Source: a virus
IMG/VR virus record: IMGVR_UViG_3300045988_079139
Location: 4,378-68,377 of that record
DNA: 64,000 nt
Reading direction: 5' to 3' (one strand)
Positions 37,201-64,000 of the stretch are shown here, one piece after another. The notes under the pieces are model-generated. The model was not told the origin of the DNA. It was given only the letters and a program-made list of their open reading frames with translations, and ran no database searches. How positions within the stretch are numbered: the stretch's first letter is position 1; every line of letters begins with the position of its first letter. Made by a program: the position numbers and the translations under genes.

Positions 37201-37983
37201 ACTGATAACAAGTATTTTACCTTCGGTTATAATTATAATTATGTTGATCCAGTAGATCCTTCTAAGAATGCTGTCGGAAGTACAATTAGAATTTCTTCAG
37301 AATATCAAAATGGTGATTTAAGAGGTAAGATTACTGTGCCAGCTGTTGATGATTAGGGTAACCCAATTGTTTCTATTATGGGCTTTGATACTGATGCAGC
37401 AAAAGCAATTACTCATTTATTCTTTATGCCAGATAATAATATTTTGCAATTTGAATCTCAAGCCTTCGAAGGAAATAACTTTGATAGTAAATTGCAATAT
37501 ATTGACTTCCCAAATCTTACTAAGTTACGCTCAATTAACAGATATGCCTTCCGTTATCTGGATAATTTACAATTATCTGAAATTCCTGCTCCTGTTGTCT
37601 ATGTTGGACAAGAAGCATTTAATGGAAGCTTTGAGTCTTTGTCTGGAATTAAAGAATTCTATATTAATGGTAGTGTAACAAAAATGGACCCTGGAGCTTT
37701 CTCTAACTGTGATGTTCCAATTGAAACTCTATATGTAGGAAAGCCTGGAGACCCAACACAGCTGGATATTAGTTCTTGGAATTCTTCTCAAGCTCCTTAT
37801 TTCCAGCAAAATCAATATTTCCGTCCTAAGACTGTATATATTTATTGTGATGGAGATCGCATTGATGCGTTCCATGCGGCAATGTCTAAGTATGCAGAGG
37901 GTCAATCTATTTTCCAAGTTGCTTGGGAGGGCGAAGAAGAATTAGGACAATATTTTGTTAAAGATGCTAATGATTTTTCTTGA
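31294..37983 (+). CDS. Giant fibre/receptor-binding protein (2,229 aa if both TAGs are read through) with a LamG-like lectin domain and a C-terminal BspA-type leucine-rich-repeat domain
   Basis: RBS ggaaagaaaggag. The 31294, 32179 and 37378 fragments are co-frame, and only the TAGs at 32008 and 37354 separate them. The supposed starts at 32179 (GTG) and 37378 have no RBS. A LamG-type motif, DIYNIRIYDQALTSKQI, lies near 33290. The 37378-37983 segment has a BspA-like LRR pattern. An alternative reading splits it into three genes if these TAGs terminate. Confidence 0.5.
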
Positions 37984-38001
37984 GAAAGGAGTACATAAAT
38001 A

Positions 38002-38199
38002 ATGAAAAAAGAGGTCTTATATACATATTTAGGCACTAATGGTATTATTTGTTCTCCTGTCCATTTAGAGGATACATATTATACTCGCAAAGTGCGTTTA
38101 TATGCCGATAAAGATAAGCGACTAACCAAAGACGGCAAGACCTTCCATAAAGTCGTTGTTGTTCAAGATGAAGAGGTTAGTGAATGGTATGAAGTATAA
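38002..38199 (+). CDS. Small hypothetical protein (65 aa)
   Basis: RBS gagaaaggag, TAA stop. Confidence 0.45.
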   Translation: MKKEVLYTYLGTNGIICSPVHLEDTYYTRKVRLYADKDKRLTKDGKTFHKVVVVQDEEVSEWYEV

Positions 38200-38307
38200 G
38201 GCCAAATATAATTATTTGACTTACTTCATACGTTATATATAACAAAGGGCCAAGGGAATTTTCCCTTGGCCTCATAATAAAAATATAATAGAAAGGAAGA
38301 GTTTAAA

Positions 38308-44532: not shown

Positions 44533-44621
44533 GGGCAGTTTTAATTAAAAGTCCTAATTTAATTTTTAATTCTTATAGAAGGTAAAACTTTCTATAATTT
44601 AATCAAAGGAGAGATTCTATT

Positions 44622-44849
44622 ATGTTAAAGATTGAAAACAAGAATTTGAGTTTCAACGCAGTGAGCATGATCAACGATGAAGTCGTTGCTAGATTCACTT
44701 CCAACTATTATGGAGCTGGCGTCGATTTTAATTATAGTGTTGAGAATGCTGTGGCCCATTTGGCACATTAGGTCGAAGCAGACGCTGATTTTGATGCATT
44801 TAAGGGTCATGTAATGGACACTATTGGTGCAATGGCTACCATTGTCTAA
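44622..44849 (+). CDS. Small hypothetical protein (75 aa, 1 TAG)
   Basis: AAGGAGAG RBS, TAA at 44847, then a terminator. Confidence 0.4.
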
Positions 44850-44863
44850 TAAGAACCATATTA

Positions 44864-44900
44864 GGGGCGAGAGCTGATAAAGCTCTCGCCCTTATTTTTG
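44864..44900 (+). terminator. Rho-independent terminator
   Basis: ggggcgagagct-gataa-agctctcgccc hairpin followed by ttatttttg. Confidence 0.8.
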
Positions 44901-44981
44901 TTTCTCGGACAAATAAAATTAATTATATGAGTTTAATTTTTATACATATATAGAGAAATTTTTGAAAAGAGAGGTGTAAAA

Positions 44982-47663: not shown

Positions 47664-47674
47664 GGAGGACGCTT

Positions 47675-50146
47675 ATGAGTTTAATGGCTTGGTATCCTCT
47701 GGATGGTAATACTAGAAATCAAGGGGTTGGTAATCTAACCCCTAGTATTTCAGGTACTCTTACTTATGCAGCTGGAAAAATTGGGGCAAAAAGTCTAAGT
47801 GGTGGAGGATTAACTTGGACTGCCGATTAGACAGCTTCAGTTTTAAATAATAAAGAATTTTCTATTGCCTTTTGGATTAAACCAGTTGGAACTACTTCAG
47901 GTCCGATTTTTGGTAATACCGGCATGGGAGCATCAAACAATAGAAAATTTTGTATTTACGCTTATCCTACTGTTAATGACTTACATTGGAGCTGGATGAA
48001 TGATGCAGCGGAGGTTGTTTATGCAGGAGGGTCAATCAATGGCAGTTTACCCTCTAATAAATGGACTCATGTTTGTATCACATATAAAAATCCTCAAGGA
48101 TATGTATATATTAATGGAGTTTAGAAATCTTCATTTAGTGGAGAAAGTAAATCTTCATCTTTTAAATATGCAACAACAGTATTGCATAATAATACTAGTC
48201 GTTATATTAATGATTTGCGTATTTATAATCATGCCTTGTCTGTTAGAGAAGTCCAATAGGTAAGTCAAGGATTGATATTACACTTACCTCTTAAAGATTA
48301 GGATCTTGAGAGCACTACGAATTTGGCTCCATATCCAACGCCAGGAGCGGCTTATACGCCAGGTTGGGTAACAAATTTACATCCTGATGCAATTTCTGTA
48401 AGTAGTTGGTCTTCTGGATATAATGGCGGAGTTGGAACCCCACAAGCTGGTTATCATGCATATTGGAAAATGATGGATGGTATTCCGACGATGGTGTTTT
48501 AGCATTTAAATTCTCAATTAGGTCTAGGAAATCGTTGGCTAGGAATAAGCTGTGGAGATTTTCAAGGTAAAATTGGACCCTCAAAAACTTATACTATTTC
48601 TTTTAATGCAAAATCTAGCGTTGACGGAGTAGTGATATCTACAGGTTATTATTATCGAACAACAGGAAGCACTTCAAATAATTTTCATGATGGATGTCCA
48701 AGTACAGCCTTAACAACCTCATGGAAAAGATATAGTTTTACTTTTACAACTTTAAATACTTTAGATACTTCTGTTAATGCCTCTATGTATATTTATGGAC
48801 ATAATGGTTCTGTTAATGGCATTGCCTATGTTCGTAATATTCAAGTTGAGCTAAAAGATCATGCGACTTCTTATACACCAACTACTAGAACTGCTAGCAG
48901 TGTTATGGATTGTTCTGGTTATTAGCACCATGGCACAATGGTTGGAACGGTAGTACCAAAAAATGATAGCGCTCGATATGATACTTGTATTTACCAAGGT
49001 GATGGCGTAAATAATTATCTAAAGAGTGGAGCAATTACAATGCCAACTGATAGTGTTACTATGAGTTGTTGGTTTAAAAGTTCAACCACAGGATATAACG
49101 GTTATCACATTCCAATGGCAGTAAATTCTAGTTCTTATGAACTAAGTATTGATTCATCCGGCCATTTTAGAAATGGCTTTGTAATTGGTGGAACTCGTTA
49201 GGTATTAACCACTTCACATACTTCAATTCTTGACGGCAAATGGCATATGATTACTGCTACATATGATGGTGCAACTATTAGACGCTACTTAGACGGTAAA
49301 GAATTAACATCATATGCTACTTCTGCAACTGGAACTTTATCTGGAGTTACTTCTGAGTTGCTTGTAGGTAGTTATGGTAGTGGAGGCTATGGTAATAAAA
49401 ATGCTTATATGAGTGATATTCGTATTTATGCTACGGCTTTAAGTGCGGCCGCAATTAAAACTTTATATGAGTCTAGAGCATCTCTAAATTCCACAGGTAC
49501 TTTAATGACTTATGAATTTATTGAAGATGGTTCAGCAAATATTAAAATGACCAGTGAGGGCTTAATTCGTGCAGGAGTAGTAAGCGAAACACAAACTGCT
49601 TTTGGTATGCCTATAAAGGTTTTAAGTGATGGAAGTGCTTGGGCACGAATTCACTGGATTGATGTTACTGGAGTAAATTCATGGTTTGCTAATGCGACAG
49701 AAGTGGATGAATGTATAGATAAATCTAATCGATTTAGTCGTATGGGTTCAGTTGAAAAATTCATTGGATCTGATGGATATTACGAATTTATGTTAACCTA
49801 TCCTCGATTATCTAAAACAAACTTTAACCGCTGGAAGCAGACAAGCTCTCCAAAAGCAAGTACAGTTACTGGTTTTACACCTATTACGACAGCTTGGTCT
49901 GCTCATAATGGTGGTATTAGAAAACACGGAAGCTCTTGTTTATATAATTGTGATACTGGTTCAACATGGTTTGCTCCAATAGGCCAATATGGAAAATGGA
50001 CTGAAACTCAATATATACCTGCGGCTGACGGAAGTTCTTAGACTGAAACTGAATTATGGGTAAGAATTGATACCTTACCTTCTTTAAATAAAATTAGTAT
50101 GTTTGATAATAAATTTATTCAAGCATTGAATATACATGAAATATGA
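47675..50146 (+). CDS. LamG two-domain receptor-binding-type protein 2 (823 aa, about 8 TAG)
   Basis: AGGAGG RBS. The N-terminus MSLMAWYPLDGN is paralogous to 41725. The 47924, 48632, 48938 and 49247 fragments are co-frame, ending at TGA 50144. LamG motifs are INDLRIYNHALSVREV and MSDIRIYATALSAAAIKTLYESRAS. Confidence 0.6.
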
Positions 50147-50166
50147 GAGAAAGGAGCTGAAATTAA

Positions 50167-53100
50167 ATGGCACAACTAAATGATTTACTGGTATTGGGTA
50201 AATCTAATTTATTGGGCGATACTAGTATTTTTGGAGCCTTTAATATTAATGGTAATGTTGCTATCGACGGCACTTTAACTGTTGAAGATGCTACTTCATT
50301 AAAGAGTTCCTTGACAGTTGCTGGATCTTCTACGATTGGCGGAGCCACCACAATTGGTGGAGCTACTACAATTGGTGGCGTCTTAACCGCGTAGGATAAT
50401 ATTAAAGTTTCAAGTAATAAAACAATTATTCAAGCTCAAAGTTCTGGTAGTAACTACACTACAGTTATTAGATGGGATTGGGCGGATAAAGGTTCATTTA
50501 GCTACTATCCGCAAATTGGTCATCATAGTAATGGAGACACTACTGGCGCTATTGTTTTATTGCCATATGCCACTAATGCCAAGCCCTGGGATGCAAATGA
50601 TGGTTTATATATATCTGCGTCTAGATTAAGATGGAATAATTTAATTGCGGCTGATAATAGTAGAAATTTTTATCCTACTCAAAATGGCACTGGTTCCATT
50701 GGTACTTCAAGCTACTATTGGAATAATGGTTATTTAAATAACTTAACTATTAAAACAGCTTTAACTTTAAATGGAACAACATATTTAAATGGTAACTTAG
50801 TTTGGAAGCCAAGTGTTAATATTACTTGTACACCAACTGCTGCGAATCAAGAATTCTCAATTGACGTTGGTAGCAGTTCTTTTACAGGGTCTTATTTCCA
50901 TATTTGGTCTGCAGTTAAATCTACTTCGATTTTAAGTTGTTATCCAGATGATTTATCTGTGAAGATGGGCGGCGCTGTCACTATCGCAGGAGCCATCACA
51001 GCTAATAGTACAGCTTTAATTAAAGGCTCAACTGAAATTCAAAATAATGTTAAAATTACTAATGGTAACTTAACTATTCATAGAGACTCAACAAAGGCTG
51101 CAAATACACCAGCTAAAATTATTTTTTCTAACAAACAAACCGATGGTAATATTACAACAAATTCTGCCTGTATTGCTGCTTATGATGATCATGATGCCTC
51201 AAGTTATGGTCAAAATTTAGTTATTTAGGGTTGTTCTAATGTTGTTGTAGGTGCAGGTGAAAGTGCTACCAGTTTTTATGAAGCAGTTTTAAAAGATAGT
51301 TCATCAGAAGGTTTATATCTAACTTCTGATGGTAGTATTTATTTCTATCCTAAATGTGACACTGTTGCTAATAGAGTTGGAGTAATTCTTGATACTTCAA
51401 GACAGTTTTATCCCGACTCAAATAACACTGGTTCTTTAGGTGTAAGTTCTTACCGCTGGGCAAATGCATACATTGGTAATTTAAATGCTTCAGGAACTGG
51501 TACAATTTCTGGCAATACTTCTATTGGAGGCACATTAAGTGTAAGTAGCACTTTAACAGTTGGTAGTACCACATTATTAAAAAATACCTTAACTGTTCAA
51601 GGCAATATTTATATTAATCAAACTGCAGGTACAGGTACTGGCCTAGCTTTGTACGGAACAAGTGCACCTGCAACATATGGAGTTTATTTTGCTCAAACTG
51701 CTAATTTTAGTAAGCATGGCGACGTTCAAGGAGATTGGGCAACTTACTTTGGAATGAATGCCGTTGGTACAAGAGGTTGGATTTTCCGTCCTGGTACAAC
51801 AAATGTGGCAAGTATTTCCGCAAATGGTGTAGCATCTTTTTCTGCTATCGGTGATGGTGTTGCTTATTTAGCATTCCCCAAGGGCGGCACTCTAACTATT
51901 GGCTCTAGTGGCCAAAAAGGATATTTAACTATTGTAATGCCAGCAGGATTTAACTCCACAATGGTTAAATTCAAGGTATCTGTTTATAATTATTCAACCG
52001 GCACTTCTGTTGACTATATTATCGGAGGTTATTGTTATTCTTCTGATAATAAATGGTATAATCCAACTGCATATTGTATTGGTCCTAGAGGTAGCGGATT
52101 AGCAAACTTAACTGTTAATTACGGTATGTCTGGAAGTAATCCAGCAATTCAGATTGGTGCGGCAGACACAACTTGGGAATATCCAAATATCGCAATTTCT
52201 GATGTTTATTTAGGTCATAGCCGTAATTATTCTAATTGGTCTAAGTCATGGACCGTAAGTATTACCACAACTGCTATTACTTCTATCACACAAACTATAT
52301 CCAATACTTATATGGCCAACTTTAGCGGTACAAATAATAAAGTTGCTAAATTCTCTAATAGTGGTCTTAATATTACTAATAGTAATATTACTGATGATGG
52401 CTCCACTGTTACTATTGGTTCTAAACTTGTTGTTTAGGGTAATGGTAGTTCATATAATGAAGGTATTCGTATTTTACCAGCTTCAAATGGTTGGTCAAAT
52501 ATCTTCTTCTCCGCTGACTCCAGCGTTTAGGGAACTCATGATGGTGGATGGCTGATCGGACGACGCGGTGCCGTAGGTTCAACCGCAGGAGCTATTGGTG
52601 ACTTCACTATTGAAGAACAAGATTCTTCTGGCGTTAACCTCACTATTCACAAAGATGGTAATGGCGCAACGTTAATGGGTAGTTTACGCATTAATAAACC
52701 GATCATTTATAGCACAGAAGCTTCCGGTACTCGTATTCTGTATGGATCTACTCGTAATTCAGGTATGAAATATGACTATAGTGGCAATGAAAGTTTCATG
52801 ATTTCTGCTGGTACTTATGCATCTGCATCAATTCTACTATTGACCGGTGGACAATTAAATATGAATGATAGTAATGGTCAATGGAATGCTAGTACAACTG
52901 TTCCAGCAATGTCTCTGCGTAAGTCAGGTGTTGCAGTTAATTATAACTTAACTTCTGACCCAACTCATAATTTTTATGTTAAGGGTACTTCAAAATTTGA
53001 TGGTGTTGTTTTTGGTTATAATTATATTAATTCAAGTAACGCTGCAGCTTTTATGTGGGACAAGAATGGAACTAACTACACAGGCGTTGGTTCTTGTGGC

Positions 53101-54189
53101 GTAGCTGATACAATTCTTTTTGCTCCTTGTAGCGCAGACGGAGCTTGGGTAAGTAGTTATGAACAGATTTGGAGATTCCAAGGATCTATTGAATTCCCTC
53201 AAAACTCTGCTCGCGTAAGAGGAAATACTGCTACTGATTATACTCCTGTTTACATAAGTGGTGAGAAAAACACTTATGGCGGTATCGCTTTTTAGAATGG
53301 ATTGCATGTCATGTCTAGTGCAGATCACCATGGTTTTTGGGACGGTACATGGATCCTTTATCGAAACACTTCTCATGGAGCTATTAGTATTGGTACCGCT
53401 CAAACCACTGCTAACGGATATGCAATTACTCTTGCGGGAAGTACTTATATTAATGGTAATACATCCATTAATGGAACTTTAACTATGAGCAACGCTATTC
53501 AACTACAAGTTGATGGTGGTAACTGGTATAATCCTATTAAGAATTTAACACATAGTGGACTATATTATGATGCGTCAAGTTCTAATACTTCTACCTACTG
53601 GAGTTTAATTGCTTTAAAATTCCCTAACCAAACTTACTCTTTAGGTGGCGAGCGCTCCGGAAATACCTTCGGTATTTATAGTTACAATAACAGTAGAACA
53701 GATAACGGATACGATGGAGCTCTTTACGTTCATGGTGGCAACCACTACTTCTATTGTACTACTAGACTATATGGCGCTGTATGGAATGACTATGCGGAAT
53801 TCCGTACTCAAGAGCAAGAAGTAGCCCCAGGCTATTGTGTCGCTTCTAGAGATAATGGCAAAATTCATAAAACCCATAAGAGACTATAGGCTTGTGACGG
53901 TATTGTCTCTGATACTTATGGTTTCTCCATTGGTGAAAATGAAGAAAATAAAACGCCTCTTGCTGTTGCAGGTCGTGTACTTGCATACTGCGAAGGAGAT
54001 AAAAACGATTATCGTGCTGGTGATACTGTTTGCGCAAGCGAAAATGGTAAAGTCTGCAAGATGACTCGTGAAGAAATTCAAATGTGGCCTGACCGAATTG
54101 TTGGTACAGTTTCTGAAATTCCTGATTATGAAATTTGGGGAACTGGAAAGGTTAAAGTTAATGGTCGTATTTGGATTAAAGTAAAATAA
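50167..54189 (+). CDS. Tail fibre B (1,340 aa, about 8 TAG), paralogous to fibre A at the N-terminus and at an internal segment
   Basis: RBS gagagaaaggag. The N-terminus is MAQLNDLLVLGKSNLLG. The 50560, 51649, 52675 and 53302 fragments are co-frame. The segment DGSIYFYPKCDTVANRVGVILDTSRQFYPDSNNTGSLG matches fibre A. A TAG at 53887 precedes the last 100 aa, and the gene ends at TAA 54187. Confidence 0.65.
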
Positions 54190-54192
54190 TAT

Positions 54193-54232
54193 AAACCCAG
54201 AGAACAAAATGTTCTCTGGGTTATTTTTTTTA
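54193..54232 (+). terminator. Rho-independent terminator after fibre B
   Basis: aaacccagagaac-aaaat-gttctctgggtt hairpin followed by a T9 run. Confidence 0.8.
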
Positions 54233-54396
54233 TCTAAAAATACCTAAACAGGTATTCTTCAGGTCCTCTTCAATTCCATTAGTGGTCTCGTTGAGGTCCA
54301 CGGCTGGACAAATTTCATTAATTTTCCCATCCTAATTTTTACATATCTATGAGGGGATGGATAAGAAAATTTTTTGTATGGAAGGAGACCTTACAT

Positions 54397-54834
54397 ATGT
54401 ATTCCAACTATAATTATTATCCACAGCAAACCCAATAGCAAGTCAGACCAGTTATGACTCAATCACCCTATCAAACTTATATGCAACCTGGCCAATTACC
54501 TATGAGTTTAAAAGGTAGATTAGTTTCATCGCTGGAGGAAGCTCGTGCATCTTCCATTGACTTCGATGGTTCTGTATTCTACTTCCCCGATTTAGCAAAC
54601 AAACGAATCTATACAAAACAAATAAATATTGATGGCACTGCGTCACTGTATGTGTATGAATTAAGGGAAATGCCCGTTTAGAAAGAAGAGAGCAGCTTTG
54701 TTCCATCAGTTGAGAAATTTGTTACAAGAGAAGAGTTTGAGCGGGTCTTGGAGTATATTAAAACACTCCAAAAGCCAACCGAGCCGGCCGCATCCGCACC
54801 AGCTAAAGAAAAAGTAGAATTACTATCATTCTAA
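54397..54834 (+). CDS. Hypothetical protein (145 aa, 2 TAG) with a Gln/Tyr/Pro-rich N-terminus
   Basis: GGAGG RBS. The N-terminus reads YYPQQTQ(TAG)QVRPVMTQSPYQTYMQPGQ. The 54454 fragment is co-frame. Confidence 0.5.
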
Positions 54835-54844
54835 GGAGGTATGA

Positions 54845-55099
54845 ATGATGTATCCAGTAGACCCTAAAATGTTAATCCAAATGATTAGACAAGGGCAAAA
54901 CCCTCAGCAATTAATGATTTCAATTTTGCAAGGACAAGCCTACAATAATCCCCTCGGAAAAAATCTCCTAAATTTAGCACAGTCAGGTCGCACCGACGAA
55001 CTAGAGAAAGTAGTTCGCAATCTATACACCCAATAGGGAGGTAAGAATTTTGACCAAGACTTTGAAGCCTTTAAACGTGCAATAGGCTACAATACTTAA
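54845..55099 (+). CDS. Small hypothetical protein (84 aa if the TAG at 55034 is read through, 63 aa otherwise)
   Basis: AAGGAGG RBS, then a downstream TAA at 55097. Confidence 0.4.
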
Positions 55100-55119
55100 A
55101 TTTTAAGGAGGACAAAATT

Positions 55120-55827
55120 ATGTTTAATGGAAATGGTTATTCTTTGGCAGATGTCGCTGCCGCAACTCGTGGCACAGAAGATGGTTTCTTCGGTGGAGCA
55201 AATGGATGGTGGATTATCCTACTGTTTATGTTCTGCGGCTGGGGTAATGGCGGATGGGGTGGCAACCGCACTGGCACTGAGAATGTGCGCGATGCTGTCG
55301 CATATGGTTTCGACATCAATAATTTGGAGAATGGCGTTCGTGGTTTAGAACATGGCATTTGCGATGGTTTCTATGATATGAACACTTCTCTGCTAACTGG
55401 TTTCGGCAATGTTGCAATGGGCAATATGCAGAATACCAATGCTCTTATGGGTCGTTTGTCTGATATGGCTGCACAGAGTGCTGCCTGCTGCTGTGAGACT
55501 CAGCATCTAATTGAGAGAGGATTGTGTGAAGTTAATTATAATATCCTAACTCAATCTAACGCAACAAATACTAATATTGCGTCTGCCGCACGTGATATTA
55601 TTGAAAGCAACAATAACGGCGTTCGTTCCATCCTAGACTTCTTGACTCAGGACAAGATTGCTACTTTGCAGGCTGAAAATCAGGCTTTGCGCTTGACCGC
55701 TTCTCAGCAGGCTCAGAATGCTTTCTTAATCGACCAGCTAGGAACTAAAGCACCCGTTCCCGCATATGTAGTAGCTAATCCTTATGCTTCTGGATATTAT
55801 GCTGGCTGTGGATGCAGTAACATCTAA
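55120..55827 (+). CDS. Membrane-anchored Gly/Trp- and Cys-rich protein (235 aa), TAG-free, with host-like codon usage
   Basis: AAGGAGG RBS. It has one predicted TM helix (WWIILLFMFCGW) flanked by GG(A)NGW and GWGNGGWGG, then CCC and CGC cysteine clusters and a Gln/Asn-rich coiled-coil-like C-terminus. Gln is encoded almost entirely by CAG. Confidence 0.65.
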   Translation: MFNGNGYSLADVAAATRGTEDGFFGGANGWWIILLFMFCGWGNGGWGGNRTGTENVRDAVAYGFDINNLENGVRGLEHGICDGFYDMNTSLLTGFGNVAMGNMQNTNALMGRLSDMAAQSAACCCETQHLIERGLCEVNYNILTQSNATNTNIASAARDIIESNNNGVRSILDFLTQDKIATLQAENQALRLTASQQAQNAFLIDQLGTKAPVPAYVVANPYASGYYAGCGCSNI

Positions 55828-55840
55828 GGAGGAATGATAT

Positions 55841-56263
55841 ATGGAAATTATTGCTAATGCTGTTCAAACTGTTGCGGCAAATCAAAATGTTTATTTCACA
55901 GATTCCGTAACTTCTGGAAATTATTCAATTGAGCATCGTGACGGAAGTGGTTTAGTTACTCTTCGTGGTGTTACTGCTACTCAATGTCGTGCTCGTTTTA
56001 GAATTCATTTCGGAGCTAATATTGCCATTCCTACTGGAGGAACCGTAGAAGCAATTTCACTTGCAATTGCACTTGATGGTGAAGCAATCCCCTCAACAAT
56101 TATGACTATCACCCCAGCCGCAGTTGAAAATTATTTTAATGTAAGTGCATCAATTTTTATAGATATTCCAAAAGGTTGTTGCTCTCATGTAAGCATTCAG
56201 AATATTTCAACTTAGCCTGTATTAGTGCAAAATGCTAATTTAATTGCGGAGCGCTCTGCATAA
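55841..56263 (+). CDS. Hypothetical beta-rich protein (140 aa, 1 TAG)
   Basis: GGAGG RBS, TAG at 56213, TAA at 56261. A faint resemblance to the BclA C-terminal / C1q-like fold is speculative. Confidence 0.45.
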
Positions 56264-56275
56264 AGGAGGAGTAAT

Positions 56276-56701
56276 ATGAGTCACATAAAATTGATGTGGA
56301 TGGAGGAGCAGCTGATTGCAGAAGCTGAAAAACAATTTGAATGTTTGGAAAAAGTCTGCACAAAAGAACTTGGCGAAGTTATTGATATGATAAAAGATTT
56401 GAAAGAAGCTATTTATTATGAAACAGTGACTAAAGCCATGGAAGCTGGTGACTCTTATAAAACAGAAAAAAGCGACCATCTTCATGGAGAAGACGGCCGC
56501 CAAGAAAGTCGTAGCTATAGATATATAGAAGCACGAGAAATGAAAAAAGATAAAGCAACACAGTTGCGCGAATTAGAAAAGTATATTCAGGAAATGAGCT
56601 AGGAAATCATTGATATGATTAGTGATGCTTCAGTTGAAGAGAAAGCTTATTTGGAAAAGAAACTTACTGCTCTTGGAGTAAAAATTGGACAAATGAAATA
56701 A
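56276..56701 (+). CDS. Hypothetical coiled-coil protein (141 aa, 1 TAG)
   Basis: AAGGAGG RBS, TAG at 56600, TAA at 56699. Confidence 0.45.
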
Positions 56702-56751
56702 AAAAAATAAAGGCGAGATAATCATCGTGATTATCTCGCCTTATTTTTTTT
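56698..56751. terminator. Bidirectional rho-independent terminator between the converging late (+) and replication (-) operons
   Basis: aggcgagataat / attatctcgcct hairpin flanked by A9 on the left and T9 on the right. Confidence 0.8.
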
Positions 56752-56754
56752 GCT

Positions 56755-57225
56755 TTAAACAAGTGGGTCATTCTCAGTCTTTAATGGTAAAGCAACTGCT
56801 TTATTATAAAATGCTTCAGCTTGACCATTACCACCTAAACCTTTGTATAGCTTATAGAATTCGATTAATTGTTCCAGTTGTCCTTCAGTAATGTATCCTT
56901 GATGTAAAAAACCTTTACATAACTGAATTAGACGGAAACGATAGGACGCAACAATTAAGTTCATATGAGATTTTTCCATATTTTCATTATCACGGCAGTA
57001 TTTTCTTAAATCTTCTAATTCTTGAAATACTGGTTCTAATTCAATATCAATCTTATTCTCAATCTTTTCATCCAATTTCTATTCTGCTAAGGTGGCAGCA
57101 TTTTTCTCAGCTGTTTCTTTCTCTCTCATAATTTGAGAATTTTTCCATTTTGCATAGCCAATAACAGCAGCGCTAATTAGACCGAACAAAATTTCTGTTC
57201 CCCACTCTGCTAAAAGAGCTTCCAT
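56755..57225 (-). CDS. Membrane-anchored hypothetical protein (156 aa, 1 TAG between the TM segment and the soluble domain)
   Basis: The ATG at 57225 (minus strand) has GGGGG upstream. The N-terminus MEALLAEWGTEILFGLISAAVIGYAKW is a TM helix. An in-frame TAG at 57076-57078 joins it to the ORF-track fragment 56755-57075, whose start is TTG. Confidence 0.45.
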
Positions 57226-57290
57226 AAGAAAATCATCCCCCTTTCAACTTCTCTACTGATGTTAAGAAAAGTGAAAGAGGGATTAATAAG

Positions 57291-57776
57291 TTAAGACCAG
57301 TCGAATACTTCGACCTTGTTATTTACATAATGAGCACCAATACAAATAGCATCACATTCATCTTGAGTTGGTTTTACGCCATAGGTTTTTTCAACCCAGG
57401 CCTGTGCCGCTTTCTTTTGGGCTGGACGATCCTTGCCCTTGATTCCAAGAGTGGATTTCCATACCGTAGAAAGAACTGCGGTACGAGGCATTTTTAAAGT
57501 TACAAATAATTCATATAAAACGCCAAACACTTCTGCCAATGCTTTAAATGTAGCTACATTATTTGCCACATTACCTTGTAATTGGATATCTTCAAAAACC
57601 ACTTCATCAATATCATATTCATCAATGAGCGAGTTTACTTTACTTCTGATAAAATGTAGTCTATCTCCAACATCAGAATGGTCTGCAGTAAACTTGCCAA
57701 AAGTGACAAGCTTACCATCATTGAATACAGCCCATCCGCTTGTGCGGCTTGCTTGATCTAATGCTAGAACTCGCAT
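57291..57776 (-). CDS. ruvC: RuvC-like Holliday junction resolvase (161 aa)
   Basis: N-terminal motif MRVLALDQASRTSGWAVF with a RuvC/YqgF-like acidic catalytic pattern. TAG-free. Confidence 0.55.
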   Translation of the reverse strand: MRVLALDQASRTSGWAVFNDGKLVTFGKFTADHSDVGDRLHFIRSKVNSLIDEYDIDEVVFEDIQLQGNVANNVATFKALAEVFGVLYELFVTLKMPRTAVLSTVWKSTLGIKGKDRPAQKKAAQAWVEKTYGVKPTQDECDAICIGAHYVNNKVEVFDWS

Positions 57777-58315
57777 TACTTAGAAGTAGAGCCAAATCCG
57801 CCAGTGCGTTCTCCACCTGCGACGTCATTTTCAGTTACGCCGTAGGGAAGAATAATTGCCTGACCAATGGCCTCTCCCTTTTTGATTTGAATATTGAATG
57901 GAGATAGATTATAAATCTGGAAGAAGATTTCTCCTTCATTGTCTGGATTGTTGTAATAATCAGCATCAATAATGCCAATACCATTACCCATCATTAACCA
58001 ATACTTTAAAGGAGAAGAGCTACGAACACTCAACTGCAACCAAGTACCTGGGTCAAGCTTGCACTTCATACCAGTAGAAACAAGAGTTGGCTTGAAGCCA
58101 GTTTCCTTTGTGAATTTAGCCATTAGCTCCATAGTGACGAACTCATCATTAGCTACGGGCCACAACTCTTTAGCTTCTGCAACCATTTGCCACAAGGAAG
58201 GAATAATATAATCCTCTGCAGCAACCATATCATAACCTGCGGACTGTGCAGTCTTTCTGACCGGCATAGCAATATCCGCATCTGTATATTTAGAAACTTT
58301 TTCAAAAATAGCCAT
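57776..58315 (-). CDS. dut: dUTP diphosphatase (trimeric dUTPase, 179 aa)
   Basis: Motifs SVRSSS, GIIDADY...GE and the C-terminal GGERTGGFGSTSK. TAG-free. Confidence 0.85.
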   Translation of the reverse strand: MAIFEKVSKYTDADIAMPVRKTAQSAGYDMVAAEDYIIPSLWQMVAEAKELWPVANDEFVTMELMAKFTKETGFKPTLVSTGMKCKLDPGTWLQLSVRSSSPLKYWLMMGNGIGIIDADYYNNPDNEGEIFFQIYNLSPFNIQIKKGEAIGQAIILPYGVTENDVAGGERTGGFGSTSK

Positions 58316-58320
58316 CTTAA

Positions 58321-58566
58321 TTAACCCCTTTCATAAGATACGGTAAACACATCTTCAGGGTCTTTTTCTGCAGTGAACTGCTTAGTGGCCTGAACTACCA
58401 TATACTCTTCTATTACTTCGCCCTTGGCCTTAATCTGCTTTACCTTATAACTAAAGCCGACCAAGTCAAAACAAGGGTCGTTTAGAAGCTCGTCATGAAG
58501 AGCTTCAACTGCTGCCTCATCGGGCACTCTGTAAGTGTCAACTGCTTTCAATAAATATCTGCTCAT
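58321..58566 (-). CDS. Hypothetical protein (81 aa)
   Basis: ORF in the tightly packed minus-strand operon. Confidence 0.45.
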   Translation of the reverse strand: MSRYLLKAVDTYRVPDEAAVEALHDELLNDPCFDLVGFSYKVKQIKAKGEVIEEYMVVQATKQFTAEKDPEDVFTVSYERG

Positions 58567-58844
58567 TACTTTAATACCTCAACTTCAATATTATTCCAAC
58601 TATAATGTTTCTTTGAATATGCTAGCACATCTTCTGCAACGGCCGCACCGTACACACTATTACCAGCCAATGTTACTTTAAATACTTTTTTTGCATCACA
58701 AATAGCACTGATTACTTCTGGCAGTTCCTCCAAAGTAGTAATCGCAACCTGGTCCTTAGTGCCAACTGCGGGGTCAACAACATAGATATTTTGATGCAAG
58801 TCAAACATATGAATTTCGCAATATACTCTCTTCATCTCATTCAC
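58566..58844 (-). CDS. Hypothetical protein (92 aa)
   Basis: ORF with 1-nt and 8-nt overlaps with its neighbours, suggesting translational coupling. Confidence 0.45.
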   Translation of the reverse strand: MNEMKRVYCEIHMFDLHQNIYVVDPAVGTKDQVAITTLEELPEVISAICDAKKVFKVTLAGNSVYGAAVAEDVLAYSKKHYSWNNIEVEVLK

Positions 58845-59331
58845 CTACTTCTACAAGTCCCAAGTCATAAGGGAATAAATACAAACAAGTGGGTTCATCA
58901 TTATTAATAACCCAAATCTCAACAGCATCATTTGCTTCAGTCATATCTACTGCTTTAACAGTACCAACATTGGGAATGCAATCAGCAACAGTATCACCAA
59001 ACATTAGAGGCTCGTTTACCTTAAATAATGTAAAGTAAGAAATCTCTTTACCATACATCATATAATATGTGTTGTGATGAAAATTATAAAAATCATTCAA
59101 TAAAGCCTCAACTCTATCCCAGTCGGTTAAATCGGGAAGCTGCGCAATAATCTGCTTATTCATATCATATAAACTCAAATCAATGCCAGAACTTTCCATA
59201 TTGATCGTATTCCATTGATTATCTTTCCAGATAAGATATTCTCCTTCTGGGTTCTGGACAATTTCTCCCTCCTGGGGAGTATATCTGATTTGAGAAGGGT
59301 CAATCTTTTTGATTTTAATTTCATTGCCCAT
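58837..59331 (-). CDS. Hypothetical protein (164 aa)
   Basis: ORF in the operon, TAG-free. Confidence 0.45.
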   Translation of the reverse strand: MGNEIKIKKIDPSQIRYTPQEGEIVQNPEGEYLIWKDNQWNTINMESSGIDLSLYDMNKQIIAQLPDLTDWDRVEALLNDFYNFHHNTYYMMYGKEISYFTLFKVNEPLMFGDTVADCIPNVGTVKAVDMTEANDAVEIWVINNDEPTCLYLFPYDLGLVEVGE

Positions 59332-59369
59332 ATCAAATCTCTCCTTTATCTCTTGATATATCTATTATA

Positions 59370-59852
59370 TCAATTTTTTTTCTTTAAGTCAATAATTCGC
59401 TGATTGCGGGAGCCTCTCATTTCCAGTGTAACATCACGCTCTTCTTCAATATATGGACCATCAATTAAGAAGTCCGCAATCTCCAAAACGTGTTTTACTT
59501 GAGGATGACTCGCGTGTTGTAGCTGTTCATATGTATAGCCACTCCAGATATATACCTTTGTTCCTGGAACTTTCTCCTTAACCTCTTTAGCTACCAAATA
59601 GGTAAGGAAAGCATTTTCGTCACAAAGAGGTTCGCCGCCCATGATACACAAATCTCTTTGTATACCCTGGGCGGTTAGTCCGGAGATAATCTCATTTAAA
59701 GTCCCAGTAGTAAATTCCTTACCACGGTTGAAGTCCCAAGTTTCAGGATTATGGCATCCTTTACATCTGTGCGGACATCCTTGTACAAAAAAGCTGACAC
59801 AAAGACCGGGCGCGGCGGTAATATCATTTAAAATTAAACCACTATATTTCAA
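59370..59852 (-). CDS. nrdG: Anaerobic ribonucleoside-triphosphate reductase activating protein (radical SAM)
   Basis: CPHRCKGCHNPETWD radical-SAM cluster motif, a length of 160 aa, and a position directly downstream of nrdD. Confidence 0.85.
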   Translation of the reverse strand: MKYSGLILNDITAAPGLCVSFFVQGCPHRCKGCHNPETWDFNRGKEFTTGTLNEIISGLTAQGIQRDLCIMGGEPLCDENAFLTYLVAKEVKEKVPGTKVYIWSGYTYEQLQHASHPQVKHVLEIADFLIDGPYIEEERDVTLEMRGSRNQRIIDLKKKN

Positions 59853-59902
59853 TGGAATTTACTCCTTTCTTATTAGCGTAGCTAACTTGTAGTTAACTAC
59901 GA

Positions 59903-62110
59903 TTAAGAAAATTTACTATGCTTAACTCTGTGTTCAACCTCTGACTGTTTTCCTTTGTTAAAATGGCGATAATCAGTGGTTAGATAGCCTGTAACACGAC
60001 GCAGTTGCTGAATGTTGTGGCTGCCGCATTCGGGACAAGCATCATTGAATTCAGCCTGGTAGCCGCAATCTAAACAAGAGTCAATTGGGAAGTTGAATGC
60101 TAGATAAGGAATATCCAACTTCTGGAATGCATAGTCAATAATCTGCTCAATTGCTTTTGTATTCTTCACGAAAGTAGAATCTAACTCAACGTAAGTGATG
60201 CATCCACCAGTAGGATACTTACAGAAAGGAGATTCAACTTCTAACTTTTCAAAGATACCAATTTCGTGCCACACGGGAACATGGTGGCTATTGGTTAAGA
60301 ACTCATGGTCAGTGACATTAGGAATAATACCATACTGCTTACGAAGAGCCTTTGCCGCAGTATGACACAAACCTTCAGCAGGAGTTGCATAACAAGAGAA
60401 GTTCAAGTCATGTCTGTCAGAAGCCTCTTTTGCGTATTCGTTAATTCTCTTAACAACTTTTAAAGCAAAAGCATGAACTTCTTTATCTTCTGCGTGATTC
60501 TTACCAAACAGCGCCTGGCACATTTCAGCAATACCAATATAACCCATAGCTAGAGTTCCGTGCTTCAGTGCTTCATAGTTAGACATTACACAATCTTGAG
60601 CGTCTTTCATAGTACCATTCTGATACATAAAAGGAGCAGCTTCAGGTGGCTGATTAACCATAATATCAAAACGCTCCAGAAGACCCTGTTCACAAAGCAT
60701 CAATAAATCCTCGAACGCAGACCAGAAACCGTCTAAGTCCGGGGTCTCACGCTTGCCCAGACAAACTCCGTATTCAATACCAAGCTTCGGCAAAATCATA
60801 GTATTAGGAACAAGGTTTCCACGACCGACACGATTATAGGAATCAGTATGTCTGTCATAACCAAGCATGGTGCGGCAACCCATAGTGGCGAAATAAGTAT
60901 CCTTATTATCTGGGTCTTCATGTGCTTGAGAATAATCACAATTGACAAAGTTAGGATAAATACGCTTACTCAAAGACTCAATAGCCATCTGCTTTAAGTC
61001 ATAGTTGGGGTCGCCAGGGTTGGCATTACATCCAGCCTTATACTGGAAAATACTAATTGGGAAAATAGGAGTTAGGTGATGCTTGCCGATACCGGACATA
61101 GAAGCACCCAACATTTTCTTGGTTACAAAACGGCCTTCACTAGAAGTGTCACGACCAAAGTTGATGGAAGTGAAAGGAACCTGGCTTCCCGCACGGGACT
61201 CCAAAGTGTTCAAATTATGGAACATTGCTTCAGCAGACTGCTTACCTTCACGTTCCAGTTGCTTTAGTGCGAAAGCAAAAGCCGCACTCATATCTTGTTT
61301 CAACTGATGATTGTCCATTTCAATGGGACCGTGTTGATTTAAAATAATATCAGCATTTTCATCGCTCTGACCTTCAACATCAGTTAGATAGTGATGCATA
61401 TGTTTACGGAAACTCTTCTTAACAAAAGGAGCCAAGTCGTAGTCCAGGTGAACAGTACCAACTCCGCCGAACTGTACTTGCGACTGGCATTGGAAAATAA
61501 CTGCTGTTTGCTGGCATGCACTACTTAAAGTAGCAGGAGGACGAATATCACCATTACGAGTTACAAAACCTTCATTGAAAACTTTTTCAAAGTCTACAAA
61601 TAAACAGTTGTGTTCACCAATGTTGGTTTTCTCCAAATCGTGTTGGTATAATAGCATATTCTTGTGTGCTTGGCTAACTTCTGGAGAAAGAGTATAATCC
61701 AGCGCAATCACTTTTTGAACATCTGCTGACGCCTCTTTTTCACGACCGGAGAAGCTCTTCTCGTCTACGTTAGCATTTGAATTTTCGACAGCGGTAGCTT
61801 CAGTGCGCTTCATAACAGCTCTGATTAACTTACTACGACGAGTACGCTCCTTGCTACGCTGATCACGATAAATAATATAAGATTTAGCTACTGCTGGATA
61901 TTCACTCTTCATCAAGTAGCTCTCAACTAAATCTTGAATTTGTTCGACGGACATATCGACACCGCGACTACCAATTAAATCTGCAATCTCTTCAGCAGTA
62001 TCGGATTCATACACGGAGCCATATGCACTGACCATCGCTTTATTAATGGCACGGACAATCTTGTTTGGATCAAACAGAACGCGAGTGCCGTCTCTCTTAA
62101 TTACGTGCAT
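59903..62110 (-). CDS. nrdD: Anaerobic (class III) ribonucleoside-triphosphate reductase
   Basis: 735 aa. It has an N-terminal ATP-cone (VIKRDGTRVLFDPNKIVRAI), a C-terminal Zn ribbon (CLDCGYQ...CPECGS) and the glycyl-radical motif RVTGYL. GGAGG RBS. There are zero TAG codons in 735 codons. Confidence 0.9.
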   Translation of the reverse strand: MHVIKRDGTRVLFDPNKIVRAINKAMVSAYGSVYESDTAEEIADLIGSRGVDMSVEQIQDLVESYLMKSEYPAVAKSYIIYRDQRSKERTRRSKLIRAVMKRTEATAVENSNANVDEKSFSGREKEASADVQKVIALDYTLSPEVSQAHKNMLLYQHDLEKTNIGEHNCLFVDFEKVFNEGFVTRNGDIRPPATLSSACQQTAVIFQCQSQVQFGGVGTVHLDYDLAPFVKKSFRKHMHHYLTDVEGQSDENADIILNQHGPIEMDNHQLKQDMSAAFAFALKQLEREGKQSAEAMFHNLNTLESRAGSQVPFTSINFGRDTSSEGRFVTKKMLGASMSGIGKHHLTPIFPISIFQYKAGCNANPGDPNYDLKQMAIESLSKRIYPNFVNCDYSQAHEDPDNKDTYFATMGCRTMLGYDRHTDSYNRVGRGNLVPNTMILPKLGIEYGVCLGKRETPDLDGFWSAFEDLLMLCEQGLLERFDIMVNQPPEAAPFMYQNGTMKDAQDCVMSNYEALKHGTLAMGYIGIAEMCQALFGKNHAEDKEVHAFALKVVKRINEYAKEASDRHDLNFSCYATPAEGLCHTAAKALRKQYGIIPNVTDHEFLTNSHHVPVWHEIGIFEKLEVESPFCKYPTGGCITYVELDSTFVKNTKAIEQIIDYAFQKLDIPYLAFNFPIDSCLDCGYQAEFNDACPECGSHNIQQLRRVTGYLTTDYRHFNKGKQSEVEHRVKHSKFS

Positions 62111-62195
62111 AATAAAACCTCCATTTAAAAAACTATATTTTGTAGATGGGCAAAAAACCTCTTACTAGATATAGTGTTTCTTCTTAATCAATTAA

Positions 62196-62765
62196 TTACT
62201 TTTGTCCTCGCGCGAACCTGCGTCCGCTCTGGACCAAAATCTCCTTGACGTTATCTTCCAGGTCACCAGGAGTGTTGTTAATCAGACCGGTGTAGCTGAA
62301 ATCAATATTATCGAAATCATTATAGTCAGCTTGGAAACGTCTGACAACTTCTCGAACGTCAGGGTCCTCTTCTCTATTTAACTGGCGTAATAGACGGATC
62401 TTGTCATTGGTTTGAATCCAAAAGACGAGAACATTACAATCCGGACGAGCCAAGAGAGACTCAACACCTGTGGGATTGAATACTCCAATGTTAATTACTC
62501 CATCACTGCGGACAGAGTCATAACTTGTGCCATAGAACCAGTCATTAAAAACAGTACACTCTAACATTTCTCCATCAAGAACTTTCTATCCGAATTGCTC
62601 GGGAGTGTAATAAAAGTAATTAACTCCGTGCGCTTCACCCTAGCGCATAGGACGAGTCGTACAGCTGATAATTTCGTGGAGGGTAGGGTCGGCCGCAAGC
62701 ACAGCCTACATAGTCCGATCTTTACCAGAACCTGCTTCTCCCATTAAGGCAATAACGTTGTACAT
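62196..62765 (-). CDS. gmk: Guanylate kinase-like nucleoside monophosphate kinase (189 aa) containing 3 in-frame TAG codons
   Basis: ATG at 62765 with GAGGAGG upstream. P-loop GEAGSGKD, then the GK signature CTTRPMR(TAG)GEAHGVNYFYYTPEQFG(TAG)KVLDGEMLE...FYGTSYDSV. The TAGs are at 62708, 62645 and 62588 on the minus strand. It overlaps the upstream gene by 22 nt. Confidence 0.6.
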
Positions 62766-62992
62766 TTAATGTCTTCCTCCTCTTCAAATTCGTATTCTAG
62801 CTTACCAGGAAGTTCGCCTTCCCAGAAAGTTGCATGACCATCACAATCGAGATTCTCACACTTATAAGGATATTGTGCTGGATAAGTAGTGAGACAAATG
62901 CCAGTGGGGATTAACTCCCCACCGCACTTATCACAAATTGCTCTGGTTGTATAAATATTTTTTACTTTGTATCTTTTAAGCATCTTCCTCAA
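62744..62992 (-). CDS. Small zinc-finger-like protein (82 aa, CxxC...CxxxxC)
   Basis: Cys pairs CDKCGG and CENLDCDGH. It overlaps both neighbouring genes. Confidence 0.45.
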   Translation of the reverse strand: MRKMLKRYKVKNIYTTRAICDKCGGELIPTGICLTTYPAQYPYKCENLDCDGHATFWEGELPGKLEYEFEEEEDIKCTTLLP

Positions 62993-64000
62993 TGCCTCCT
63001 TGATAACGAGAGTCTTTCAATACCAATTCTCCATTGGGAAGAACTGACTCAATCTTATATAACTGGTGACCGCCCGTAGAAGCATACTTCTTAGATACAA
63101 AATCGTCACCAGAACGAATACCAGTAACCACAATCATATTTCCACGATTGAACCAAGACTTCTCCATAATCTTCTTAGTTCCATCTGCTTGACGCTCAGA
63201 AATCTGCTTATCAAACATTGTAAAATATTCTTTTCTAAACTTGACATTTACAACACCTGTTGTAGTCAAAATAGTTACTGTACTCTTAGTCTTATTCTTC
63301 GCAATACAAGTGCCGCAGATACGATTCAACTTAAAGATATGAATATCTTTTCCGCCCTTTGTGAAAGTCTTCTCAATCACTGGGTCTTCTGGTAGACTAT
63401 AAAAGTCTACAAAACCATATTTGTCGTTATTAATATGCTCAAGTTCATGCTCGTGATAATAGAAGCACAATACTTCCATTTCCCACGCGGAGATAGTTCC
63501 CTTCGCATATTTCTCCCAATCCTGCATAAAGATTTCAGTATTCAGTGCATCTAAGATAGCTTCTTTGTCAGACGCAATCCATGCTCTAAATACATCCATA
63601 TGCTTCTGGTAAATTGCATCCCAATTCTTAGTTTTTACAAACCAAGCAAGGTTATCTGTTTCCATAATATCATCACATTCAATTTCATGCAAGAACGCAA
63701 TTGCTCTTTCATCAAGTGAATACATATTAGGATAAGCATATTTATCTGCCTTTGTAATTGCTTTTAAATATCTGTTAAACTCGTAGACTCTACGAGCCAA
63801 AACCTGTTCAGGAGTCTTTTCAGGCAGAAGATTATGTTTAATCAAACCACCCATATTCTGTAATGTGATACGACTCTTCTTATCACAAGTCTCCCAAATA
63901 TACCATGCCATAGTAAACTTTCTATCTTCCATATCATCAAAAGCTCCGCCCTTGATTAGAGAAATCATTGCCTGCTTACTAGGCTTAACTTTATTCAAAA
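62976..64000 (-). CDS. dnaE: DNA polymerase III alpha-subunit-like replicative polymerase, C-terminal part (partial; the N-terminus lies beyond the window end)
   Basis: LIKGGAFDDME matches the DnaE helix-hairpin-helix region (LIKAGAFD). The C-terminal OB-fold-like segment reads TVTILTTTGVVNVKFRKEYF...NMIVVTGIRSGDDF. The ORF runs into the window edge. TAG-free. Confidence 0.55.
   Translation of the reverse strand, partial: LNKVKPSKQAMISLIKGGAFDDMEDRKFTMAWYIWETCDKKSRITLQNMGGLIKHNLLPEKTPEQVLARRVYEFNRYLKAITKADKYAYPNMYSLDERAIAFLHEIECDDIMETDNLAWFVKTKNWDAIYQKHMDVFRAWIASDKEAILDALNTEIFMQDWEKYAKGTISAWEMEVLCFYYHEHELEHINNDKYGFVDFYSLPEDPVIEKTFTKGGKDIHIFKLNRICGTCIAKNKTKSTVTILTTTGVVNVKFRKEYFTMFDKQISERQADGTKKIMEKSWFNRGNMIVVTGIRSGDDFVSKKYASTGGHQLYKIESVLPNGELVLKDSRYQGGIEEDA

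Follow-up and report, generated by a model that had tools for sequence, protein, structure and literature searches.

The stretch analysed here (64,000 nucleotides; positions 4,378 to 68,377 of the virus record IMGVR_UViG_3300045988_079139, referred to throughout as the window) carries a cassette of five small genes, g1 to g5, placed between the last fibre gene, whose stop codon lies at 54189, and a convergent terminator. We found that these genes form one terminator-bracketed operon, that four of the five are translatable only after TAG is decoded as glutamine, i.e., late in infection, and that the cassette, or its g3 core, adjoins holin and endolysin genes in many unrelated phages. The cassette is neither a set of peptidoglycan hydrolases nor a spore or exosporium gene set, and we tentatively propose that it may encode an accessory complex that acts late, at the membrane, in lysis or egress.

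Organization of the g1-g5 cassette

An earlier reading of this DNA, made from its letters and open reading frames (ORFs) and called here the sequence-only reading, had recognised a cluster of five genes at this place, and the set proved to be real. The genes are separated by 10-19 nt, each is preceded by an AAGGAGG-type Shine-Dalgarno site, and all five end with a TAA stop codon. Since strong intrinsic terminators are found on both sides, g1 to g5 appear to constitute a separate transcription unit; a sigma-70-type promoter was not detected in the 175-nt spacer upstream of g1. The extents assigned earlier hold for g3 under the standard code, and those of g1, g2, g4 and g5 need TAG to be read as sense; the end of the cluster at 56701 is attained only via read-through of the TAG at 56600. 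The cassette and its boundaries are as follows.

54194-54222, both strands: intrinsic terminator hairpin after the last fibre gene (13-bp stem plus T-run), the upstream edge of the cassette
54397-54834, plus strand: g1, 145 aa
54845-55100, plus strand: g2, 84 aa
55120-55827, plus strand: g3, 235 aa
55841-56263, plus strand: g4, 140 aa
56276-56701, plus strand: g5, 141 aa
56710-56742, both strands: bidirectional intrinsic terminator (15-bp stem, T-runs on both strands), which closes the cassette and the convergent minus-strand unit

TAG recoding of the cassette and the late region

In-frame TAG codons are present at g1 codons 14 and 95 (54436-54438 and 54679-54681), g2 codon 64 (55034-55036), g4 codon 125 (56213-56215) and g5 codon 109 (56600-56602), and the window's copy of g3 has none. 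When TAG was treated as a sense codon across the window, the summed length of ORFs of at least 100 aa rose from 15,173 to 24,042 aa, in fewer ORFs, and broken fibre and tape-measure genes fused to give an uninterrupted late operon. The 3269-aa tape-measure gene (PhageMin_Tail; 3027-12836, plus strand) contains 41 in-frame TAGs, and the 1340-aa fibre gene contains six. Throughout the plus-strand late region (1089-54189), TAG serves as a sense codon (Gln), and the minus-strand replication genes at 57.3-64 kb (RuvC, dUTPase, NrdG and NrdD) have zero TAG. A guanylate-kinase-like gene on this "early" strand (62196-62765, minus strand) carries three in-frame TAGs, its neighbours having none, and recoding therefore extends beyond the plus-strand late operon.

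For g4, the alignment with the PHROG profile and with over 100 full-length homologues continues across the TAG to residue 139-140, and the TAG column is occupied by Q in 22 of 24 full-length homologues. When the codons used by homologues at the five TAG sites were tabulated, every site showed Glu codons (GAA/GAG), and four of the five also showed Gln codons (CAG/CAA). Gln was commonest at g1 codon 14 and g4 codon 125 and tied with Glu at g5 codon 109; Glu was the most frequent at g1 codon 95. In g2, relatives mostly retain the TAG of codon 64. TAG is read as Gln in the late genes (genetic code 15), and read-through restores full-length conserved proteins. A standard-code reading of the ORFs was rejected, as it fragments four of the five cassette genes and most late genes; annotation of such windows under the standard code would truncate these same four. 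No tRNA gene, and so no suppressor tRNA(CUA), was detected by ARAGORN within the 64-kb window. Four of the five genes depend on TAG suppression and are therefore not expressible from a quiescent prophage.

In recoded gut phages, late structural genes and genes of the lysis region decode TAG as Gln, replication genes use the standard code, and it has been proposed that recoding times the expression of late and lysis genes (Borges et al., bioRxiv 10.1101/2021.08.26.457843). The same partition between late and replication genes is seen in the window, and its lineage (150-200 kb, predicted Clostridia hosts) misfits the named clades for which that report gives sizes. The recoding context is thus already known, and the cassette itself is without a described counterpart in the literature that we found: it appears in no paper retrieved, and searches on the PHROG and DUF identifiers and on BclA-like phage proteins gave nothing relevant.

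Association of the cassette with lysis genes

The sequence-only reading had placed the cluster where lysis cassettes usually lie, and comparison with other phages bore this out. The close relatives of the window are ~150-200 kb gut-metagenome contigs binned with Clostridia metagenome-assembled genomes; scaffold_5 of ENA ERZ28633598 is an example of a relative. Of the 28 other loci of this family, 26 contain a holin gene of phrog_13712 (E 1e-32; weak Holin_LLH match). In all but two of the 27 loci having both this gene and g1, it lies upstream of g1 at a distance of one or two genes. In other lineages, the cassette comes after holin/endolysin pairs. One 40-kb temperate lineage, for example, has a tail fibre, a holin, an endolysin and a small helix-turn-helix (HTH) protein, followed by an extended cassette (c6-g1-c4-g3-g4-c7-c8) in which c6 is protease-like, with the integrase on the opposite strand.

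To cover such lineages together, we scanned 100 non-redundant proteins encoded no more than six genes upstream of the cassette. The scan returned four holin Pfam families (Phage_holin_4_1, Dp1, 5_2 and 6_1) and at least seven families of peptidoglycan hydrolases (Amidase_2, Amidase_3, GH25, Glucosaminidase, Peptidase_M15_3, M15_4 and ELLD), along with CW_7 and PG_binding_1. Individually confirmed examples were Amidase_2 with PG_binding_1, GH25 with CW_7, an M15C L-Ala-D-Glu peptidase, and the GH73 endolysin of phage Ceridwen. Among crAss-like phages, the g3 homologue of cr1_1 lies between a putative holin and an L,D-transpeptidase-type lysin, that of cr116_1 directly follows a holin and an L,D-carboxypeptidase, and that of cr52_1 follows a gene labelled "lysis regulatory protein".

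The cassette genes themselves include no recognisable lysin. As had been noted from the letters, no amidase, lysozyme or peptidase signature is present in g1 to g5 (Pfam, NCBIfam, PHROGs and PADLOC were all without match), and no endolysin catalytic family was reached at E<=1 in Pfam, NCBIfam or PHROG searches.

g3, the most widespread component

g3 belongs to phrog_16490 (E 2e-35; PHROG function unknown) and is the most widespread component of the cassette, with at least 7568 homologues forming at least 1415 clusters at 50% identity. It had been described as a Gly/Trp-rich single-pass membrane protein with CCC/CGC clusters; the composition, the conservation of CCC/CGC-type Cys motifs and a conserved hydrophobic segment all stand, and what tempers the single-pass assignment is that the hydrophobic core is short (11-14 residues). 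This putative anchor, flanked by Gly and Trp, occupies residues 23-41 (55186-55242) and has a Wimley-White octanol score of -12.6 kcal/mol, the scores of all full-length relatives ranging from -8.5 to -15.8. The conserved motifs are NGLCDGFY, CCCET (CCC at 55486-55494) and a C-terminus of the form ASQQAQN...PxPAYxVxNPY...GCGC. In an AlphaFold model of the monomer, residues 66-207 form one continuous helix; the mean predicted local distance difference test score (pLDDT) is 65, with values of 85-97 along helix residues 141-220. If straight, this helix of ~140 residues would be ~21 nm long. A profile search against PDB sequences gave coiled-coil noise at most.

The family has one conserved hydrophobic segment and, in relatives, is encoded beside holin and endolysin genes, as a holin might be. 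Its length of 235-315 aa, with a long helix, is atypical for a holin, and hhalign gave a probability of 0.1% for its relatedness to the phrog_13712 holin of the same phage family. Several g3 relatives do contain TAG, and the avoidance of TAG is therefore not a conserved property of g3.

Bitopic holins and holin-associated proteins, such as T4 gpT (a class III holin), XhlA of PBSX, BhlA of SPbeta and Holin_LLH, have one membrane segment near the N-terminus and, after it, a large domain that is mainly helical; they are encoded beside holin/endolysin genes and expressed late. g3 is like these proteins in outline only, and no sequence or profile likeness to the Pfam or PHROG holin families was seen. 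g3 is also longer, with its helix of ~140 residues, has the conserved CCC and a C-terminal CxC, and is always accompanied by several soluble partners. An analogy of architecture only may also be drawn with the i-spanin Rz and with class I viral fusion proteins, in which a Gly-rich hydrophobic or transmembrane segment is likewise combined with a long coiled coil and conserved cysteines. Rz and g3 have the lysis-cassette location in common, and crAss-like homologues of g3 carry the depositor labels "spike protein/glycoprotein". In contrast to Rz, g3 has no outer-membrane lipoprotein partner, no lipobox and no detectable homology, and its hosts are mostly monoderm Clostridia, which have no outer membrane to fuse.

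g4, a predicted C1q/TNF-type jelly roll

The sequence-only reading called g4 a small all-beta domain, and structure prediction agrees. The protein (phrog_20016, PHROG function unknown) is predicted with confidence to be a ten-stranded C1q/TNF jelly roll, nearest to the C-terminal domain (CTD) of BclA; the closest fold neighbours are the exosporium proteins BclA CTD, F-BclA CTD and ExsFA. This likeness is at the level of fold only. Sequence identity to the Bacillus exosporium proteins (BclA CTD, the tip fibrillum F-BclA and ExsFA) is only 12-18%, the Pfam families BclA_C and C1q were unmatched at E<=1, and a profile search against PDB sequences was empty at E<=10. BclA has an exosporium-targeting N-terminus and a collagen-like GXX stalk, whereas g4 stands alone without either: its jelly roll starts at residue 2, with no N-terminal extension or signal peptide, and it contains an invariant GCC motif. 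Again unlike the BclA-type proteins, the g4 cassette is also associated with non-sporulating hosts. Stand-alone proteins of this fold and size are common in gut phage metagenomes, and in other lineages g4 is replaced by unrelated small Cys-rich beta proteins.

g1, g2 and g5, the putative soluble partners

None of g1, g2, g4 and g5 has a signal peptide or hydrophobic segment. g1 has a Q/Y/P-rich low-complexity N-terminus, followed by a compact conserved domain (KGRxVSSxEExRAxxIDFDGSxFxFPDxANKxIYTK) and a C-terminal helix. It matches phrog_21718 (function unknown, E 6e-11) and had no match in Pfam, NCBIfam, PADLOC or a profile search of PDB sequences. g1 had been likened to the spore-coat protein GerQ; its Q/Y/P-rich N-terminus is real, but Pfam Spore_GerQ was matched at E<=1 neither by g1 nor by any of 11 diverse family members, each scanned individually. 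Homologues of g1 account for 94 gene calls in the compared loci, including those of Butyrivibrio phage Ceridwen and Clostridium perfringens phage HMD-PC1.

g2 is a small helical protein, rich in Q, M and N, without a family match in Pfam, PHROGs or NCBIfam; it is kept beside g1 and g3 in the 150-200 kb family, in Dulem virus 39 and in HMD-PC1. g5 is helical as well, with a variable central region that in relatives is a long low-complexity insert rich in G, Y, N, M and R. It gave no significant family match, nor a significant match in a profile search of PDB sequences, and it follows g4 in 40 gene calls among the compared loci.

Distribution and synteny of the cassette

The cassette was present and syntenic in all loci of the 150-200 kb family that we examined, with g1 to g5 in identical order and place, at the end of the late operon. 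Downstream, the order in the family is a convergent gene designated m1, then RuvC, dUTPase, NrdG, NrdD, guanylate kinase and DNA polymerase III alpha, and this synteny holds at g3 identities from 95% down to 38%. DNA and protein searches of the GenBank phage collection found no relative of the window lineage. In the window, the convergent neighbour is the following.

56755-57225, minus strand: m1, 156 aa; a hydrophobic helix at the N-terminus, a domain of phrog_4105/4257 (unknown function) and a single in-frame TAG

m1 is a conserved neighbour of the cassette throughout the family and has no annotation; its homologues are 155-157 aa long, which confirms read-through of its TAG.

With the closest relative (L003, 172.9 kb), blastn showed 91% identity over window positions 54218-64000 and none upstream. 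The fibre module upstream of 54218 is unrelated to that of the relative, and the cassette was untouched by the exchange. The recombination breakpoint at 54218 falls within the post-fibre terminator (window 54190-54396 compared with 7933-8560 of L003).

Beyond this family, Butyrivibrio virus Ceridwen and a Butyrivibrio prophage carry g1, g3 and g4. Dulem virus 39 has g2, g3, g4 and g5 by tblastn and g1 by profile search, and the cassette is found in many ~40 kb temperate phages of IMG/VR. C. perfringens phage HMD-PC1 has g1, g2 and g3, with a 119-aa Cys-rich beta protein in place of g4. Homologues of g3 also occur in many crAss-like phages, in a cultured Bacteroides phage and in two Methanomassiliicoccales viruses. 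Accessions for the cassette proteins of cultured phages are QHJ73766, QHJ73768 and QHJ73769 (Ceridwen), XOB87409-XOB87412 (HMD-PC1) and WLZ21182 (Bacteroides phage C3_41T2LP). A DUF7841 protein is encoded beside g3 both in one lineage of Firmicutes phages and in crAss-like cr52_1 and cr1_1 (hhalign 99.3%), and it is a second partner conserved across host phyla (L105 3348-3947, L106 3192-3935 and L068 8083-8637). Homology by hhalign was obtained only between these crAss DUF7841 proteins and c58. The proteins in equivalent positions in other lineages were considered as remote homologues of cassette members, namely c4 for g2, c7 and c58 for g5, and c45 or a 136-aa crAss protein for g4; in this they had no hhalign support and are positional analogues only.

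Codon usage

Two of the five genes had been said to have host-like codon usage. To evaluate this, synonymous choice was scored as the log-likelihood ratio of early-gene versus late-gene usage. The deviation is significant in g3, which scored +0.131 per codon, a value reached by 0 of 2000 late-gene segments of equal length; the other four genes do not bear the claim out, with p ~0.13-0.20 for g1 and g2 and usage typical of late genes for g4 and g5, as also for m1. The G+C content at third codon positions (GC3) is 0.39 in g3, compared with ~0.2 in late genes, and its CAG:CAA ratio is 10:1. Early-type codons and the absence of TAG are common to g3 and a virion structural protein (73-1011, plus strand; phrog_2729), which is TAG-free with a GC3 of 0.41. 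TAG-free genes with early-type codons may represent highly expressed late genes that avoid dependence on suppression. The g3 deviation could reflect the level or timing of expression, and a host origin is not required, because its usage matches that of the phage's own early genes and of the TAG-free virion protein.

Proposed role of the cassette and alternatives

If the cassette assists lysis or egress, its site of action would be the cytoplasmic membrane, and it would work alongside the lysis machinery or immediately after it. g3 might oligomerise into a membrane-anchored coiled-coil stalk, and the soluble partners, i.e., g4 (or another small Cys-rich beta protein), the low-complexity g1 and g5, and the Q/M-rich g2, would assemble on it in the cytoplasm or arrive via holin lesions, as endolysins do. 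Such a complex could tune holin triggering and the timing of lysis, or perturb the membrane or envelope at release. A broader version, which we regard as improbable, holds that g3 and its partners are a new class of egress or lysis machinery, shared horizontally among phages of monoderm Clostridia, phages of diderm Bacteroidales (crAss-like) and Methanomassiliicoccales viruses. This machinery would be a fusion-protein-like membrane-anchored coiled coil with Cys cross-links and exchangeable small jelly-roll heads, and its target at release would be the cytoplasmic membrane, the only structure common to all of these hosts.

Several observations weigh against a role in lysis or egress. The evidence on function is entirely guilt by association, and g1 to g5 have no detectable homology to any holin, antiholin, spanin or lysin. 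The g3 model is that of a monomer and is of modest confidence. In some genomes the cassette is placed elsewhere: it comes after an antirepressor in HMD-PC1 and csAssE-Sib, among recombination genes in Bacteroides phage C3_41T2LP, and between the reverse transcriptase of a diversity-generating retroelement and an integrase in the archaeal virus vir215. The holin and endolysin, which the sequence-only reading had advised seeking elsewhere in the genome, were looked for across the window and were not found: a six-frame hidden Markov model (HMM) search showed that the phrog_13712 holin (c17) is absent, and no endolysin domain was present in the scanned window proteins, the 2229-aa product of 31294-37983 being left unscanned. 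A hydrophobicity scan left, beyond the cassette and after internal segments of the tape measure and two discounted calls, only m1, the hydrophobic helix of which is ambiguous (unfavourable on the Wimley-White scale); no stronger holin candidate was seen in the window. The genes for the lysis enzymes presumably lie beyond the window, in the remaining ~100 kb or more. Finally, the slot after the lysis genes is the classical insertion site of accessory genes (morons) in Firmicutes prophages, so that adjacency alone is no proof of a role in lysis.

This last point leads to an alternative that we consider somewhat unlikely, in which the cassette is a portable moron module unrelated to lysis, serving superinfection exclusion, receptor masking, defence or modification of the host surface. 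Movement of the cassette between unrelated backbones, and its occurrence at variable sites (integrases, antirepressors and early regions), would fit such a module, as would the terminators of its own that bracket it, the atypical codon usage of g3 and, as a weak indication, a small sigma-70-region-4/HTH-like protein that precedes the cassette in two lineages. Under this alternative, a membrane-anchored system would simply occupy the tolerant place with which the late operon ends, and g4 or its replacements would bind ligands as an interchangeable subunit. Many adhesins and lectins have the C1q/TNF fold, and the exchange of g4 for unrelated Cys-rich beta proteins is in keeping with this. However, TAG in four of the five genes blocks production in an uninfected lysogen using the standard code, and in the 150-200 kb family the cassette is a fixed part of the syntenic core rather than a variable one. 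The compositional deviation is confined to g3 and does not extend to the whole cassette, and the spacer upstream of g1 gave no sign of a sigma-70 promoter. An anti-defence or defence function, which the sequence-only reading had also entertained, gained nothing from PADLOC-DB, where neither g1 to g5 nor m1 had a significant match and no known or candidate defence family was hit.

A second alternative, which we judge unlikely, is that the cassette builds a virion appendage or decoration, with g3 as shaft, g4 as a trimeric distal knob, and g1, g2 and g5 as chaperones or scaffolds. The cassette lies directly after four fibre genes with Laminin_G_3 and CBM domains, the long g3 helix resembles a fibre shaft, many fibres of phages end in C1q/TNF knobs, and collagen-like fibre proteins are among the BFVD matches. 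The codon usage that g3 has in common with the virion structural protein would also be consistent with this, as would the depositor labels "outer capsid protein/viral fiber" and "spike protein" on crAss-like homologues, although these labels may reflect no more than a resemblance to coiled coils. On the other hand, the conserved membrane-type anchor of g3 is unexpected in a fibre of a tailed phage, a holin/endolysin pair separates the cassette from the structural genes in temperate phages, and in some phages the cassette is in early or recombination regions. In the window, a terminator stands between the cassette and the fibre genes, and comparison with the closest relative shows that the fibre module was exchanged and the cassette left in place.

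The leading idea of the sequence-only reading, in which g1 to g5 would be morons of a spore-coat or exosporium type acting on the spore or surface of the host, is favoured by the Q/Y/P-rich, Gly-rich and Cys-rich compositions, which recall coat proteins, by the fold neighbours of g4 and by the predicted Clostridia hosts. It is very improbable: no cassette protein is a sequence member of the GerQ, BclA_C or YjcZ families, g4 lacks the collagen-like region and targeting N-terminus of BclA, and TAG-dependent expression would come late in the lytic cycle, with the cell near lysis. The presence of g3 homologues in phages of non-sporulating Bacteroidales (crAss-like) and in archaeal viruses argues strongly against a spore-specific function, and this phyletic distribution largely refutes the idea.

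Whichever role applies, the homologues of g3 and of g4 each number in the thousands in public metagenomes, and for g1 to g5 we found no Pfam family, name or paper. The cassette is constant in an abundant family of Clostridia phages that are TAG-recoded and missing from GenBank, and many other gut phages, crAss-like phages included, have it next to lysis genes that are not homologous to one another. A role in lysis or release, if true, would extend the holin/endolysin model of Gram-positive hosts by one component; as an accessory module or a virion fibre, the cassette would still be among the more widespread unannotated phage modules. Cultured phages carry it, which makes it experimentally tractable.

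Additional features of the window and of related loci

In relatives, the cassette is flanked by small protease-like genes (e.g., L017 11124-11435, L103 5804-6190 and L024 7770-8234). A metallopeptidase-like gene with an HExxH motif (c11) follows g5 in most relatives of the 150-200 kb family, a Cys/His protease-like phrog_3754 gene precedes g1 in temperate phages, and a PolyVal metallopeptidase flanks the cassette in a Bacteroides phage. The window has none of the three, the absence of c11 being established by the six-frame HMM search.

Long antisense ORFs overlap g1 and g3, that in the window lying at 55137-55439 (minus strand), with equivalents in L043-L104. A length-based ORF caller prefers these to the real g1 and g3, which is an annotation hazard in this phage family; ORF calling in the compared loci was weighted for Shine-Dalgarno sites.

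The gaps at 37984-38307 and 44533-44981 contain small unannotated ORFs with Shine-Dalgarno sites, encoding ~66 and ~75 aa, the second with an in-frame TAG. Of the two discounted calls of the hydrophobicity scan, one was a short out-of-frame ORF within the second gap, and the other was a stretch that precedes the start accepted for 58566-58844. In the region 41725-54189 (plus strand), four large genes for fibres or receptor-binding proteins stand in tandem (935, 893, 823 and 1340 aa), and Laminin_G_3 and CBM_4_9 domains are present in two of them. Relatives have fewer such genes, which suggests an expansion of the host-range module.

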